A DNA stretch of 35,472 bases from a virus (lineage: Duplodnaviria > Heunggongvirae > Uroviricota > Caudoviricetes). The stretch is taken from positions 1-35,472 of IMG/VR virus record IMGVR_UViG_3300023181_000027; one strand, given 5' to 3'. Position numbers and translations under genes: made by a program. Below, piece after piece: positions 773-26,823 of the stretch (its first letter is position 1; each line of letters starts with the position of its first letter). The notes under the pieces are model-generated. The model did not search any database. It was not told the DNA's origin and was given only the letters and a program-made list of their open reading frames with translations.

Positions 773-1549
773 TTAAAATCTTTCATTAAACGCTTTCAGT
801 ACGTATAGCATATCTGGAGTAATCATGTGTTCTACATAACCAGCCATTTTACTATCCATACCACCTCTATGTGCATTAGCCAACTCTGCCGCCATGCTAG
901 CAACTGTATCGCAATCTCCGCCTATACTAACAGCATTACGAATTGCTCCTTCAATATCATCGCTATCTAAGAAACAACGAGCTGCCTGAGGGACTGTATA
1001 ATCACAGCTCACTTTAAACTTATCGTACCTAGTTAATTGCCAAGGGAATAATAGACCATACCAAGCTCTACAGAAGCGTTCGTACTCTTCTTTGTCTTTC
1101 ATTTCGTTCAATGCGCCAATACTACTTACAATAAACTTTGCAGCTTTAATAGCTTGTGGGTTATCGTGAGAGGATTTGGCAGATAGTGTAGCTTCGTCTT
1201 GAGCATAACCGACGTCATAAATAGCATAACCAATAGGTGATACCCGCATGGCAGCGCCATTACCAAAGCTATCGTTGCTGGTAAAATCTGGTCTATGAAG
1301 CCACTCTTTAAATAACTTACCATAGTAGTCACCAAAGTGCTTCATGCCCCAGTACTTATACTCGACTGTGTAATTAGAATTGTTTAGGAGTTTTGACATC
1401 GTAGCGATTGTCATGATGGTATCATCAGTGAAGTGTTCGTCCTTGTTAAAGAACTTGAAATTCTTCGTGTAGATTGGGTTCATTTCGTAAGGGGAACCAA
1501 TTATGTCGCCGAGGATGGCTCCATACCCTTTGTGTTTGTTCTTTTCCAT
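773..1549 (-). CDS. ADP-ribosylglycohydrolase (DraG/ARH family)
   Basis: Motifs GAILGDIIG, FTDDT, SFGNGAAMRVSP, GGDCDT. Confidence 0.9.
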   Translation of the reverse strand: MEKNKHKGYGAILGDIIGSPYEMNPIYTKNFKFFNKDEHFTDDTIMTIATMSKLLNNSNYTVEYKYWGMKHFGDYYGKLFKEWLHRPDFTSNDSFGNGAAMRVSPIGYAIYDVGYAQDEATLSAKSSHDNPQAIKAAKFIVSSIGALNEMKDKEEYERFCRAWYGLLFPWQLTRYDKFKVSCDYTVPQAARCFLDSDDIEGAIRNAVSIGGDCDTVASMAAELANAHRGGMDSKMAGYVEHMITPDMLYVLKAFNERF

Positions 1550-3398: not shown

Positions 3399-3414
3399 AG
3401 ATCTAATTTTTAAG

Positions 3415-3552
3415 CTGTGTAGGCAGGATTCGAACCTGCATATAGCACTTGTCGGTCTTTGTATTATGCAATTAAACTCACACTTTACTCTCGACTTGCT
3501 TCCCTACGTCTATTTTTATTTAGATGTGTCTGCACCATTCCACCACTACACA
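3415..3552 (-). ncRNA. tRNA-like RNA B with about 70-nt structured insertion
   Basis: Acceptor TGTGTAG/CTACACA plus G73-C, D-arm GTG/CAC, T-arm GCAGG-TTCGAAT-CCTGC; 8-nt loop instead of an anticodon loop; insert with AGCA/TGCT and GTCG/CGAC stems. Confidence 0.65.
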
Positions 3553-3555
3553 GTG

Positions 3556-3662
3556 CTCACAAGGATAGATTCGAACTACCATTCCATTTTCCCGAGACAG
3601 GTAGTTAATGGATAACTATCACCATTACTGATGGGTTGCGTTTGCCGTTTCGCCACATGTGA
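3556..3662 (-). ncRNA. tRNA-like RNA A with non-canonical anticodon arm and expanded variable region
   Basis: Acceptor TCACATG/CTTGTGA plus G73-C, Leu/Ser-type D-arm GGCGAAACGGCAAACGC, T-arm GGTAG-TTCGAAT-CTATC. Confidence 0.62.
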
Positions 3663-4480: not shown

Positions 4481-4513
4481 TAATTACTTTTATGTTTACA
4501 TTCTGTTAATTAG

Positions 4514-4598
4514 TGGACGCGCGAGGAGTCGAACCTCGCATTATTCATATTTCAATTGAACTTCACAGTTCAATTCCCTCAGCCAGAGCGCCACGCCC
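4514..4598 (-). ncRNA. tRNA-like RNA G: Ala-identity acceptor with GNRA-capped helix instead of anticodon arm
   Basis: GGGCGTG/CGCGTCC with G3-U70, A73; T-arm CGAGG-TTCGACT-CCTCG; perfect AATTGAACT-GTGA-AGTTCAATT hairpin. Confidence 0.7.
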
Positions 4599-4652
4599 AT
4601 TAGGCTTTTAAGCCAGTACGCCTATACAGGTTTGGAAGCTGCATTTCGATTG

Positions 4653-4764
4653 TAAGTAAAAAGAGATTCGAACTCTCAATTTCAGCTATTCTCCTATCAC
4701 CCAGGTCTCTGATATTCACTGATGGCCCCTTATAGGCTGTATTTACCGATTCTACTATTTACTC
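4653..4764 (-). ncRNA. tRNA-like RNA F with long irregular helix replacing anticodon arm
   Basis: GAGTAAA/TTTACTT plus A73-C, D-arm GTA/TAC, T-arm GAGAG-TTCGAAT-CTCTT; central CAGC/GCTG and CCTAT/ATAGG. Confidence 0.62.
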
Positions 4765-4765
4765 G

Positions 4766-4885
4766 CGGAAGTGATCGGAATCGAACCGACACAGTACCAG
4801 GGACTTACATGGTCTACCAAAGTTATATCCGATTCGAACGGAGCCTCTCGCCAACAAGTAACTTCTACCATTAATGTACACTTCC
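4766..4885 (-). ncRNA. tRNA-like RNA E with a nested second T-arm module
   Basis: GGAAGTG/CACTTCC plus G73-C, terminal T-arm GTCGG-TTCGATT-CCGAT; internal AAGTTA/TAACTT stem enclosing TCCG-TTCGAAT-CGGA. Confidence 0.65.
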
Positions 4886-4889
4886 ATTG

Positions 4890-4962
4890 GGGTGAAGAGA
4901 GGATTCGAACCTCTGCCAATCATATCTTATACTACTGCACAACCAGCCATGCTCCATCACCC
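4890..4962 (-). ncRNA. tRNA-like RNA D: His-type G-1:C73 acceptor, degenerate anticodon arm
   Basis: G-GGTGATG/CTTCACC-C, D-arm GCAT/GTGC, T-arm AGAGG-TTCGAAT-CCTCT; anticodon stem poorly paired. Confidence 0.55.
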
Positions 4963-4968
4963 ATATAG

Positions 4969-5025
4969 TTGCAAGGGAAGGAATCGAACCTCCGCACATC
5001 CGAACTACCACTATTCTACCTTGCT
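4969..5025 (-). ncRNA. mini tRNA-like RNA C lacking the anticodon arm
   Basis: GCAAGG/CCTTGC, D-arm GAA-TAGTGGTAG-TTC, 8-nt linker, T-arm GGAGG-TTCGATT-CCTTC; 57 nt total. Confidence 0.68.
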
Positions 5026-9280: not shown

Positions 9281-10561
9281 TTATAAGTCTCCTATTTCTT
9301 TCATTTCTTCTTCATCGAACATTTCTTCTTCTGGATCTTCACCATCTCTCTTTTTAAGAGCGGCAATGATTTCAGCTTTACTGTTCTTTAATTTATCCCG
9401 CATTATTTGCTTAACCACCCATCTAAACGCCTCACCAATCGCTTGTTCTCTGTAACCTAAGTCCATCATATCAAACGAATCAACAGCTAACTCTTTCAAG
9501 GTTTTAGGATATAAACCGGCATTAAACTGGTTTACCACGCCACTTCTTAATTTAGAATAATGATCATGTATGTCCGTATGTTTAAAGAATGGAGATGTAA
9601 GCATCTCAGGATAAAGTCTAAGATTCTCGAACAATTTCACCCTAGCTACCCAAGGGGACCATACATTAATAGCTTGTAGTGCTTTTAATCTTCTAGTAGT
9701 AGTACTATCAACTTTCAATTGCTCAGCGATATGCTTACCTTGCCAGTAAGCTCCACGAGTAGCAACCCAAATAAGTTGAGCAAAATCATCAATAGGTGGT
9801 TGCTTTTTTAGTTGCTCTACAGTGATGTGTGAACCGTAACCGTTATCATATCTGAACACTGGCGTCCACATATCCATTCTGATTATTAACTCCAAGCCTC
9901 TGTTAGCTACACCTTTATCCACCATCTTCTGTAACTCAATAGTAACCCTCTCAGCAGAGATCTTCTCCAGTTTAGCTTTATGCTTTCTAATGAGGGCAAT
10001 CATTGGTGTATCGATAGTAAAATCAAAGCGGGCAGCAAATTGTACAGCTCTCAATATACGTAATGGATCATCAACGAAGGCCGCATCACTCACACTCTTT
10101 ATAAGCCTAGACTTTATATCAGCTTGCCCTTTGAAGGGATCGTGAATAATTATTCCACCAAACCAAGGAATCTCAACAGCAATAGCGTTCATGGTAAAAT
10201 CCCTTCTTGCAAGATCTTCTTTGATGCTCATAAATGGATCCACTATTATTTCAAAGTCAGTGTGCTTACCACCTTCTTTCTTCACGTCTTTACGAGGGAT
10301 TGCGATATCAATCTCTTCCCCTCCTTTAGCTTTAAACTTTATTATACCAAACGATTTACCAACTTGATCAACTTTACCAAAGTTACTAAGTAATGTAATT
10401 AACTTATCTAGTTCAATGTTTGCTATCAAGATATCCAAATCTTTAGATTCCTCCCCTAGGAAGTGATCCCTTACAGCGCCACCAACACAGTATACTTTAG
10501 CTTTTTCAACTTGTAAACTGTCGAAGAATGGCAGCCCTCTTACTTTTTCTATACACTTCAT
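9281..10561 (-). CDS. cca: CCA-adding tRNA nucleotidyltransferase (class II)
   Basis: VGGAVRD..DLDI, DLARRDFTMNAIA, DDPLRILRA..FAARF, ERV..EL motifs; start set at MKCIEK. Confidence 0.92.
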   Translation of the reverse strand: MKCIEKVRGLPFFDSLQVEKAKVYCVGGAVRDHFLGEESKDLDILIANIELDKLITLLSNFGKVDQVGKSFGIIKFKAKGGEEIDIAIPRKDVKKEGGKHTDFEIIVDPFMSIKEDLARRDFTMNAIAVEIPWFGGIIIHDPFKGQADIKSRLIKSVSDAAFVDDPLRILRAVQFAARFDFTIDTPMIALIRKHKAKLEKISAERVTIELQKMVDKGVANRGLELIIRMDMWTPVFRYDNGYGSHITVEQLKKQPPIDDFAQLIWVATRGAYWQGKHIAEQLKVDSTTTRRLKALQAINVWSPWVARVKLFENLRLYPEMLTSPFFKHTDIHDHYSKLRSGVVNQFNAGLYPKTLKELAVDSFDMMDLGYREQAIGEAFRWVVKQIMRDKLKNSKAEIIAALKKRDGEDPEEEMFDEEEMKEIGDL

Positions 10562-10764
10562 TTGCAATGACAATCTGTTATGCTGTAACCACAGTAACCA
10601 AAACATCTAAATGGACGATGACAGAATAAACTCTCGCCTTCACCGTCATGATTCACATGTTCTTGTCCAGTGGTTAGCCAGCGTTTAAATATTAACCTTC
10701 TATTAAAATAGACGAACAGTTGATTATGTACTATCTCCTTTGTGATCATGACATTAATCTCCAA
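10558..10764 (-). CDS. hypothetical protein
   Basis: ORF only. Confidence 0.55.
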   Translation of the reverse strand: MEINVMITKEIVHNQLFVYFNRRLIFKRWLTTGQEHVNHDGEGESLFCHRPFRCFGYCGYSITDCHCK

Positions 10765-15250: not shown

Positions 15251-15254
15251 TTTG

Positions 15255-15327
15255 CGGGGCTGTAGAGGTTCGAACTCTAGTTCACGGTGTTAGAGACCGC
15301 TGCCTTAACCAATTAGACGACAGCCCC
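15255..15327 (-). tRNA. amber suppressor tRNA (anticodon CTA)
   Basis: Perfect GGGGCTG/CAGCCCC, G73, GCGGT-CT-CTA-AC-ACCGT, TAGAG-TTCGAAC-CTCTA. Confidence 0.9.
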
Positions 15328-15718: not shown

Positions 15719-15736
15719 GTTATTGATTATTAACAG

Positions 15737-15843
15737 TGGACCCAAGAGGAATCGAACCTCTGATTCTAGTTGTTAGTCTTGAGGGAAAGGGGCTACCCAA
15801 TATATCGAAGACATCTAGCGTGCTACCTCTACACTATAGGTCC
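15737..15843 (-). ncRNA. tRNA-like RNA H with about 45-nt insertion in the anticodon arm
   Basis: GGACCTA/TGGGTCC plus A73, D-arm GTGT/GCAC, CTAG/CTAG stem extended by GTCTT/AAGAC, T-arm AGAGG-TTCGATT-CCTCT. Confidence 0.68.
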
Positions 15844-15910
15844 TATTGCGTGTATAGCAAAGATTTGCGCTACACTTAATCCTCTCACAATTCTCTTCGA
15901 GAGGCACTTG

Positions 15911-15980
15911 TGGACACAGTCGGAATCGAACCGAATCATTCTCATTGCAAAAGAGACGCCCTGCCTTCGGGATCAGGCCC
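15911..15980 (-). tRNA. tRNA-Ala(TGC), weakly paired
   Basis: G3-U70, A73, TCTC(T)-TT-TGC-AA-(T)GAGA. Confidence 0.75.
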
Positions 15981-24551: not shown

Positions 24552-25505
24552 TTAAAAGTTACCGTACTCAACCTGAAGACATTTCAGGCCAAGTTCTTCT
24601 CTCCACATGTTCACCACTTGATCGCGATCATCAAATACAGCCTCAATGTAATATTTGTCTTTGATATGCTGATGATAGATCTCTTTTTTAATGATGTTGT
24701 CCTTCCTGAAGTCATTTGTCGGTCTCATTAGAAGTTGTTCATATTCTTGGCCATAGTATACACCCAACCAAGCTTCTGTTTTCTTCCTCGCTGAACCATC
24801 TCTACCAGAGAGGAATATCACTTTATAAAAGAGTGATAGTGTACGTACAATGTTAAGTACGTTCTCATCCGGATCGTCAAGATCAACCTTCAACCAATCA
24901 TATGGACCACGGTGATCACCCATGTGTGCAACTGTACCGTCAATATCAACGATAATCGCTTTCGGGAGATTAGGATTTTGTTCGCCAACCACAATTGTAC
25001 CTTTAGGTGTCGCTGTTTCTGTTATAAGTTTAAGCAGGTCTGCTTTCGCTGTAAGGACACTCTTAAAACCTTTGTACATTTTATCAATTACATCTTCTGG
25101 TACAACCTTATCGCGTTGTAAATTTTGAGCTTTGATCTCTTTAATAGAGAGCTCTGCTCCAATAACTTTAAGTACAATCCGAGCATCTTTACCAAACTTA
25201 GTAATAGTCTCTTTAAGTGTCTTTAAGTTACAGTGTGTATTGTCAAGCAAGACATTGTAACCGTGACGAAGAGCTGCAAAAGTTGCAGCATCGATATTCG
25301 CGCTTACTAGATCTTCTATTTCCTCACCAGGATACCACTTGTCTGCTAACATGTGGCGGAATTCATCTCTGGATAATTTCACATATCCAGGGTTTGATTT
25401 TAGAAACTGACGTGCAAAGGTAGATTTTCCACTACCTGGTACACCTATCAATATCATTATTTCGTTACTCTGCGGTATCAGAGTTTTCTTCTTCTTGTTG
25501 GGCAT
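24552..25505 (-). CDS. polynucleotide 5'-kinase/3'-phosphatase (T4 PseT-like)
   Basis: GVPGSGKST P-loop, RDEFR, DNTH; C-terminal HAD DIDGT, FDDR; true start may be 25457. Confidence 0.92.
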   Translation of the reverse strand: MPNKKKKTLIPQSNEIMILIGVPGSGKSTFARQFLKSNPGYVKLSRDEFRHMLADKWYPGEEIEDLVSANIDAATFAALRHGYNVLLDNTHCNLKTLKETITKFGKDARIVLKVIGAELSIKEIKAQNLQRDKVVPEDVIDKMYKGFKSVLTAKADLLKLITETATPKGTIVVGEQNPNLPKAIIVDIDGTVAHMGDHRGPYDWLKVDLDDPDENVLNIVRTLSLFYKVIFLSGRDGSARKKTEAWLGVYYGQEYEQLLMRPTNDFRKDNIIKKEIYHQHIKDKYYIEAVFDDRDQVVNMWREELGLKCLQVEYGNF

Positions 25506-26823
25506 CTTCTATGTTTTCCTCTCCTTTGTCTAACTCTTTAGTTTCATGCTCTAAGAATCTAAACGATTTTAATTTAAGTGCTTCTGGGTTACTGTAACCT
25601 TCTATACGTAGAACAATACCTTCTGCTGGCACTTTATTCGCACAGAACTGACAGTCTTGATCGTACACATAAGCTGACTTAAGTGCCTCTAAATACTGTT
25701 CTCTCCACTCTTCAAGTGTAAGTACAGTGTTACCATGTTCGTCTGCTGCATCGAACCAACCATTAGCTGGTCCAAAGTAAATCAGTGGACAAGTTTCTAC
25801 ACCTAACTGCTCCGCCCTTTCCTGCACCATGAAATATGGGAGGTCGATGACTTTCCCTTGTGTGGAAGTTTGGGTGATACGGTAGACGTAGATTTTGTAT
25901 TCATTCTCTTTGCAGCCATAGTCATATCCTTTTTGGATATACCCACCGTCCTTGGTGAAGCCCACGCACTCGCCATAGATAGTTTCGCCATCGAGCAGAT
26001 TATCTTTGAAGTGTTCGTTAATATCCTTCCAAAGATCATACTTGTAGTAATGCTCCGGATTCGTGTTAATATCTTCATTCTTAATTACTTTTCTGCTAGA
26101 GTAGATATTGTCATATTGAGTAGTTGACACCCCGACTCCGAGCCATTTTGCAAACTTTTCATACCATTTGAGTGGTCGTTTACATAGTACTTTAGAGGAA
26201 ACGAAACTTGTGCCGTGGAGTTTCCATGAGATCGAAATGATATTGTCTGGTTGCAGTCTATGCAGATTCTTACCGAGTTGTGCCGTGTCATAATGAAGTC
26301 TAAATTGATTATCAATAATTTTCGATTCCCGAACTTTTTTATTGTGTTGTGTGGTAAGTGAACCAGTTCCTTGTTTCTTTACCACATACTTTTTAACGAT
26401 TTCCTCCCCGTTAACAGTGTCAAATTCTTCACCTACTAAAGAGGTAAGGTCACTTACTTTATCGCCTAAGATGTAAGCTAAAGTGTCAATAGGGGCAACA
26501 TAACCCATGGATTTGTTACCTCTCAATCGAACTGCCTTCACTCTACCTTTCTCCTCGAAGAAGCCTGGTTTAGCATTAATGTCAGCATTTAACTCTTTAG
26601 TCTTAAACTCGTTATTTGCTTTTAAATAGCTGGCAGAAATCTGACACTCAAGTGGAAAGTAGATACCAATAGTACCTTCCTTCGTTTGATTACTTGTGAT
26701 GATCTCATTACCATCCACATTAAATACTAATAAGAAGTCTGAGTTATGTGCTGGTCTCAGATTCTTTATTTGAATTATCTTTGCCAGATAATTCGGGTTG
26801 TGTTTTGTTGATTTGCTTAACAT
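25465..26823 (-). CDS. RNA ligase (DRB0094/Rnl5-like, N-terminal OB domain)
   Basis: KLHGT, IYGE..G, EGIVLR, LKLKS..F; N-terminal tRNA-binding-like region. Confidence 0.85.
   Translation of the reverse strand: MLSKSTKHNPNYLAKIIQIKNLRPAHNSDFLLVFNVDGNEIITSNQTKEGTIGIYFPLECQISASYLKANNEFKTKELNADINAKPGFFEEKGRVKAVRLRGNKSMGYVAPIDTLAYILGDKVSDLTSLVGEEFDTVNGEEIVKKYVVKKQGTGSLTTQHNKKVRESKIIDNQFRLHYDTAQLGKNLHRLQPDNIISISWKLHGTSFVSSKVLCKRPLKWYEKFAKWLGVGVSTTQYDNIYSSRKVIKNEDINTNPEHYYKYDLWKDINEHFKDNLLDGETIYGECVGFTKDGGYIQKGYDYGCKENEYKIYVYRITQTSTQGKVIDLPYFMVQERAEQLGVETCPLIYFGPANGWFDAADEHGNTVLTLEEWREQYLEALKSAYVYDQDCQFCANKVPAEGIVLRIEGYSNPEALKLKSFRFLEHETKELDKGEENIEDAQQEEENSDTAE

Follow-up and report, generated by a model that had tools for sequence, protein, structure and literature searches.

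A probable divergent relative of phage T5 RNA2, with a predicted double-elbow fold, among the clustered tRNA genes of a leaf-litter phage

What kind of RNA is encoded where a single tRNA-like acceptor stem encloses two T-psi-C arms? The question is raised by a minus-strand element at positions 4766 to 4885 of a viral DNA stretch of 35,472 nucleotides, here termed the window, which makes up the initial third of a virus record of 105 kb that is about 50% complete and whose probable source sample is a leaf-litter metagenome. ARAGORN called 24 minus-strand tRNAs in the window and the element lies near the distal end of this cluster; it was itself called neither by ARAGORN, even at a relaxed score, nor by Rfam, RF00005 included. 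A preliminary description made from the sequence had recorded an outer acceptor stem, two T-arms, two TGGTAG motifs (at 4870 and 4819) and an inner AAGTTA/TAACTT complement, all of which we found in place on the minus strand. A plus-strand reading was rejected, since the T-arms occur on the minus strand only; a 65-aa plus-strand ORF overlaps the element.

A second T-arm within the body arose in a fraction of 0.0006 of 300,000 shuffles and is therefore not due to chance, and the 5-bp anticodon stem with a 7-nt loop that characterises decoding tRNAs is absent. Judged from its sequence and that of its relatives, the element is very probably a functional non-coding RNA. Its parts are assigned as follows.

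4766-4885, minus strand: whole RNA gene, a putative T5 RNA2-like double-elbow tRNA mimic of about 120 nt plus discriminator
4879-4885, minus strand: acceptor stem, 5' strand, with 7 of 7 Watson-Crick pairs to 4767-4773 and a compensatory change of G-C to A-U in the orthologue L130
4864-4878, minus strand: outer D-arm-like segment, with TGG at 4870-4868 (predicted partner of the outer T-loop) in the canonical position after UA and kept in L130
4855-4863, minus strand: anticodon-stem equivalent, 5' strand, pairing with 4793-4800 with one bulge and one U.U mismatch
4850-4852, minus strand: GGC strand (GG-Y) of the conserved family helix, pairing with 4804-4802
4828-4842, minus strand: inner T-arm with a 4-bp stem, outside which lies a C.U mismatch, and a 7-nt T-loop at 4838-4832; C-G becomes U-A in L130
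4817-4819, minus strand: TGG of the putative inner D-loop mimic (predicted partner of the inner T-loop)
4801-4807, minus strand: TAAGTCC family signature, comprising the UAA bulge and the 3' strand of the GG-Y helix
4793-4800, minus strand: anticodon-stem equivalent, 3' strand, pairing with the 5' strand
4774-4790, minus strand: outer T-arm with a 5-bp stem including one G-U pair and a loop at 4785-4779; compensatory change of U-A to C-G in L130
4766-4773, minus strand: acceptor stem, 3' strand, and discriminator G at 4766, with no encoded CCA

This architecture is also seen in RNA2 of coliphage T5 (gene rna2, T5s06; NC_005859, 32959-33083; annotated also in AY692264 and AJ604531), which carries the GenBank label 'tRNA-like stable RNA with unknown functions' and the sequence of which shows two T-arms, TGG after the first of them and TAAGTCC. 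Matches extending over at least 80% of its length were found in 418 cultured-phage records, together with weaker partial matches in Acinetobacter phages, and literature searches, in which the original T5 papers were outside the range covered, gave no description of a double-elbow fold. In Acinetobacter phage AB1I1M-1 (L625, 1136-1249) a short 'hypothetical protein', probably spurious, lies over the RNA2 homologue, and the same is seen in several T5-like records.

T5 RNA2, of about 124-125 nt, and the element, of about 120-123 nt, share one acceptor stem around two T-arms, a GG-C/UAA-G-UCC helix, a candidate anticodon-like stem and a location in a phage tRNA cluster, and neither has an Rfam family. 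They differ in that blastn detects no similarity between them, the helices of the element are weaker and its variable loop is of 2 nt, and T5 is a coliphage whereas the phage of the element derives from leaf litter; moreover, the loop of the core family is GAGGGY/TCCGCA while that of the element is GTTGGC/TCCCTG. The stable RNAs RNAC and RNAD of T4 (species 1 and 2), also of unknown function (PMC9697503), are comparable in that they do not decode and are encoded where a phage tRNA cluster ends, but they carry at most one T-arm and the best score in their region with the family model described below was 22.7 bits.

The family alignment and model were based on 29 relatives, with the window element and its two subfamily members, L130 and L175, left out. 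Most of the relatives had been collected with a pattern containing TAARTCC, such that the conservation of this motif (0.93 per column) is inflated, but not the covariation of its partner. Mutual information, computed with no assumed structure, recovered both T-stems, the anticodon-like stem and two further pairs: one, U-A/C-G, links GG-Y with UAA-R-UCC, and the other, G-C/A-U, is adjacent to it. The first of these, the Y-R pair, occurs as U-A in 19 and C-G in 8 of the 29 sequences. All four pairs of the anticodon-like helix, which is 80% paired, covary, and the inner T-stem is 98.9% paired with changes on both sides. Overall, 83.5% of structure cells are paired, compared with 59.1% after shuffling, where 0 of 500 shuffles attained the observed level, and slid controls gave 32-54%. 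RNAalifold, applied to a MAFFT alignment, recovered the two T-stems and nothing else. Conservation is concentrated in the inner module (0.84-0.98) as against the acceptor stem (0.34-0.41), the T-loops being conserved too, and the discriminator is A in 15, G in 5, C in 5 and U in 4 members. This variability of acceptor and discriminator argues against a single charging identity. A same-strand tRNA lies within 1 kb in 24 of 31 members.

With this model L130 scored 58.7 bits, L175 49.9 and the window element, matched from end to end, 54.8, compared with 35.7 bits for the best tRNA in the window and at most 39 for ordinary tRNAs in a wider search; two double-T elements that lack the signature also reached 52-53 bits, so that by itself the score identifies the class and no more, and the assignment to the family rests on the signature. 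In the element, as in the family, one acceptor stem encloses two T-psi-C arms within about 115-130 nt, the GG-Y/UAA-R-UCC helix is present with a matching Y-R pair (chance of the motif pair here, 0.003), and GG follows the inner T-stem at 9 nt, which is the spacing in T5 RNA2 and within the 8-10 nt of most members. The element departs from the family at the covarying G-C/A-U pair beside the loop, where it carries a U.U mismatch, and after UCC, where it has CTG and not GCA or ATA. The U.U site is also unpaired in two of the 29 core members, and thus it marks a divergent subfamily and not exclusion. We consider the element to be a likely, though divergent, member of the T5 RNA2 family, sharing its predicted double-elbow fold. 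Such a placement of an RNA from an unrelated soil phage would mean that the design has been kept across distant phages, and it yields a structural model, with two elbows and an invariant internal loop, that is testable in T5 and Escherichia coli. The stable non-tRNA RNAs of T5 are annotated with no assigned function, and the contribution of the element is a single further, divergent member.

The subfamily is defined by three sequences only, the window element, L130 and L175. L130 is a clear orthologue; its phage was reached via a nearby ADP-ribosylglycohydrolase gene and it sits just upstream of the same glucosaminidase gene, with compensatory changes in the acceptor and both T-stems. L175 came from a motif scan and carries both T-arms and GTTGGC, neither of which was part of the query, and it alone was retained from the TAAGTCCCTG scans, which were biased by their own pattern. 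The inner T-arm is kept in both, the G-C, G-U and C-G pairs of the GG-Y helix are identical in all three sequences, and the pair beside the UAA bulge is A-U in the window, G-C in L130 and U-A in L175. In the anticodon-stem equivalent, an A-U pair is replaced by G-C in L130 and the U.U mismatch is restored to A-U in L175. The second TTCGA, to which the preliminary description had attached particular weight, holds up well: it is conserved as a TTCRA loop, with compensatory stem changes, in the orthologues and in the 29-member family.

Further searches were less productive. When cultured phages were searched by blastn with the element and with L130, the only matches were short ones to T-arms, exact nested patterns found no match in viral or metagenome contigs, and searches for related loci via neighbouring proteins yielded one distant locus or none. 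The relatives L118 and L123-L127 lack this element; the odd tRNA-like units that they contain are different ones. A scan of bacterial genomes provided no convincing family member among the 120 matches listed. In several Flavobacteriaceae genomes (L517, L521, L529, L547, L566, L567 and L578), T-arms lie in close pairs that have the AGCTAAGTCCGGT spacer in common, and no acceptor stem encloses them. A conserved tRNA-like phage RNA with a single T-arm was also encountered (L187, L206, L211, L225, L239, L252, L255, L257, L260-L262 and L265), in which AGGG...TAAGTCCCT replaces the normal anticodon and variable region.

The fold of the element rests on comparison and not on energy, the folding z-score of the RNA strand being only 0.27. 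By nearest-neighbour energies the family fold is at -13.6 kcal/mol compared with -23.3 kcal/mol for the fold of the preliminary description with its two hairpins. The anticodon-like stem would have 7 pairs, interrupted by a bulge and a mismatch, and is supported by L130 and L175, while a rival helix, ACTTGT/GTAAGT, forms 6 of 6 pairs in the window and L130 and 3 of 6 in L175; three subfamily sequences do not suffice to assign the anticodon-like stem to one register. A separate candidate, an ACCA/TGGT hairpin around TAAGTCC, was rejected with 2 of 5 and 3 of 5 in-register pairs in the orthologues.

The preliminary description had further nested an inner acceptor stem, AAGTTA/TAACTT, within the outer one and suggested that the unit at 4819-4865 might be excised as a 47-nt mini-RNA. 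Six Watson-Crick pairs are available in the window sequence (4864-4859 with 4825-4820), at roughly tRNA-like spacing from the inner T-loop, but a complement of this kind is found in 5.9% of shuffles and its ensemble pair probability is 0.01, so that it is present but not significant. Only 3 of the 6 pairs remain in L130 and 3 in L175, or at most 4 if the register is shifted; the earlier reading had been made to depend on this stem and, in the comparative data, the stem fails. Among 31 double-T elements, helices of this inner-acceptor class are depleted relative to shuffles (1.75 versus 2.92 pairs, above the shuffle in 6 of 31, p=0.001), the longest having a median of 3 bp in the family, and T5 RNA2 is annotated as a single RNA of 125 nt. 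The poor conservation in the orthologues, together with the depletion of the class, led us to reject the mini-RNA precursor, which is extremely improbable. Another suggestion, of a bivalent tRNA mimic, was right in outline; the second T-loop is conserved with compensatory stems and GG follows at a near-fixed distance, whereas the nested acceptor was wrong.

Insight into the inner module came from the broader class of double-T RNAs. Pattern scans revealed many phage contigs with one acceptor stem around two T-arms and, of 19 elements from a scan whose query had no TGG motif, 13 have a TGG no more than 12 nt beyond the inner T-arm (mean in shuffles 5.3, maximum 12). A complete permuted body, consisting of T-arm, closed acceptor hairpin and D-arm, is present in L025 and L073, a reduced hairpin in L026, and none in most. 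Given the TGG and these complete or reduced bodies, the inner T-arm and GG are best read as a putative circularly permuted elbow from which the acceptor has been removed. Contacts between D-loop and T-loop in both elbows would then follow by analogy with tRNA. No class of helix was enriched when the mixed double-T elements were folded under constraints. In addition, L033 (1080-1213) has three T-loops in one acceptor stem, and a shorter subclass of about 95 nt is represented by L331 (2487-2581; Limnohabitans phage DC31, PQ492658), L030, L047 and L081, with a covarying helix of 3-4 bp beside the outer T-arm; it is unannotated in the cultured phage.

The genomic setting bears on how such an RNA might be made and used. 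The relevant features are given below.

4511-5025, minus strand: five atypical tRNA-like units arranged head to tail, the element being the third
9281-10606, minus strand: phage tRNA nucleotidyltransferase (CCA-adding enzyme; PHROG 2244, E 3.5e-56), a probable 3' maturation factor whose role for the element is presumptive
24552-26823, minus strand: polynucleotide kinase (PNK) and RNA ligase
773-1549, minus strand: ADP-ribosylglycohydrolase

The window also encodes nucleotide-metabolism genes. PNK, RNA ligase and the CCA-adding enzyme constitute a tRNA-repair set which, taken together with the ADP-ribosylglycohydrolase, suggests conflict with tRNA-damaging defences.

The element would probably be transcribed together with the tRNA cluster, cut out at its outer acceptor by host RNase P, possibly aided by the 1-nt spacer that separates it from the next tRNA-like unit, which begins at 4764, and supplied with CCA by the phage nucleotidyltransferase. 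Its outer half would fold like the body of an ordinary tRNA. Where a tRNA has its anticodon loop, a helix supported by the family covariation would instead run through the GG-Y/UAA-R-UCC internal loop, and this extended arm would be capped by the second, permuted elbow in which the T-arm precedes a short GG D-loop mimic. As the likeliest role, though at less than even odds, we tentatively conjecture that the product is a nuclease-proof tRNA decoy. It would bind some widely conserved factor of the host for which the shape of a tRNA is the cue, for instance a defence nuclease or sensor directed against tRNAs, with the sequence-conserved inner module as a docking surface, and would offer no anticodon loop to cut. 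If true, this would be a new kind of RNA-only counter-defence. Extending the conjecture to T5 RNA2 and its relatives, as a widespread and undescribed class of uncleavable mimics that would use the permuted elbow and UAA loop to capture a defence or surveillance protein directed at tRNAs, and of which the element would represent a distinct soil-phage subfamily, is more doubtful. The deletion of T5Mos (30661-38625) spans RNA2 and the phage still forms plaques on cells lacking PARIS (PMC11464382). RNA2 is thus not essential, as expected of a conditional function, and T5-123, which keeps RNA2, is nevertheless sensitive to PARIS, so RNA2 is not sufficient against that system.

The same fold could also serve translation, the RNA being charged or bound by EF-Tu and docking on the ribosome, in the A/E site or at the L1 stalk, so as to tune stalling or the stringent response during infection. 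The intact acceptor, T-arm and D-arm agree with this role, as does the occurrence of such RNAs in phages of distant hosts (E. coli, Salmonella and Acinetobacter), which indicates a universal target, and UAAGUCC-GCA (4801-4807 and the family consensus) shows what we take to be a resemblance to 16S rRNA near position 1090. Since the discriminator and acceptor identity are unconserved, and the extended arm is far longer than an anticodon arm, we regard a translational role as fairly unlikely. The preliminary description had also raised interdigitated T-loops forming a platform for other tRNA elbows, in the style of T-box leaders, RNase P and the L1 stalk. Two conserved T-loops in one RNA provide the likeness, but each belongs to a full tRNA-type T-psi-C arm with its own D-loop-like GG at a fitting distance, and three covarying helices would hold the loops at opposite ends of a long arm; to our knowledge, the loops of the T-box and RNase P platforms are not T-arms of this type with D-loop partners. 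No Rfam match of the element to such platforms was obtained and we judge this reading very improbable.

A scaffold for a ribonucleoprotein with a phage or host protein, in which the elbows confer stability and the UAA loop binds the partner, would find its precedent in the YrlA Y RNAs of bacteria and phages, where a T-arm before a D-arm forms a permuted tRNA-like domain on a long stem (Chen et al. 2014, PMC4201824). The inner T-then-D order of the element follows this topology, and a sequence-conserved loop is suited to protein binding. In YrlA, however, an acceptor hairpin separates T from D within a single elbow, and the RNA is accompanied by Ro60, whereas the element has an 8-nt unpaired linker with no inner acceptor hairpin and its stem is borne by a second complete tRNA body. 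No YrlA match to the element was found in Rfam at E up to 1, nor a Ro60/TROVE gene in the record (about 50% complete), and in the orthologue and at the loci of T5 and Acinetobacter phages the RNA is flanked by tRNA genes and by small, unrelated genes, which leaves the scaffold unlikely. Finally, weak predicted stability, several odd neighbours in the array and the dispensability of RNA2 in laboratory strains of T5 might be taken to indicate that tRNA fragments were duplicated in tandem and have since decayed, without a function. Against decay speak the compensatory changes, a spacing that is fixed and a non-tRNA motif that does not vary among unrelated phages; this reading is largely refuted by the covariation and exceedingly improbable.

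Additional tRNA-like RNAs occur in the same genome. In the window, atypical units within 4511-5025 (minus strand), and at 3553-3662 and 3412-3552, include one of 57 nt without an anticodon arm, one of 72 nt whose D-arm is degenerate and others in which the anticodon arm carries long inserts. At 15736-15980 (minus strand) a permuted tmRNA was called by ARAGORN at a relaxed score, overlapping an Ala-like tRNA shape at 15908-15979. A tRNA with a CUA anticodon, of the amber suppressor type, at 15254-15327 (minus strand) is also present in the relatives L123 and L128; a rough check of coding density showed nothing that points specifically to TAG recoding. Beyond the window, another element with two T-arms lies at 74871-74993 (G000:C1, minus strand), scoring 40.8 bits with the family model and lacking the TAARTCC signature. 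A second set of tRNA-like RNAs with anticodon-arm inserts is located on the minus strand of G000:C1 at about 73800-75600, 79589-79701, 84958-85045, 88170 and 90380, and a short AGTGA...TCACTT hairpin is common to several of them.
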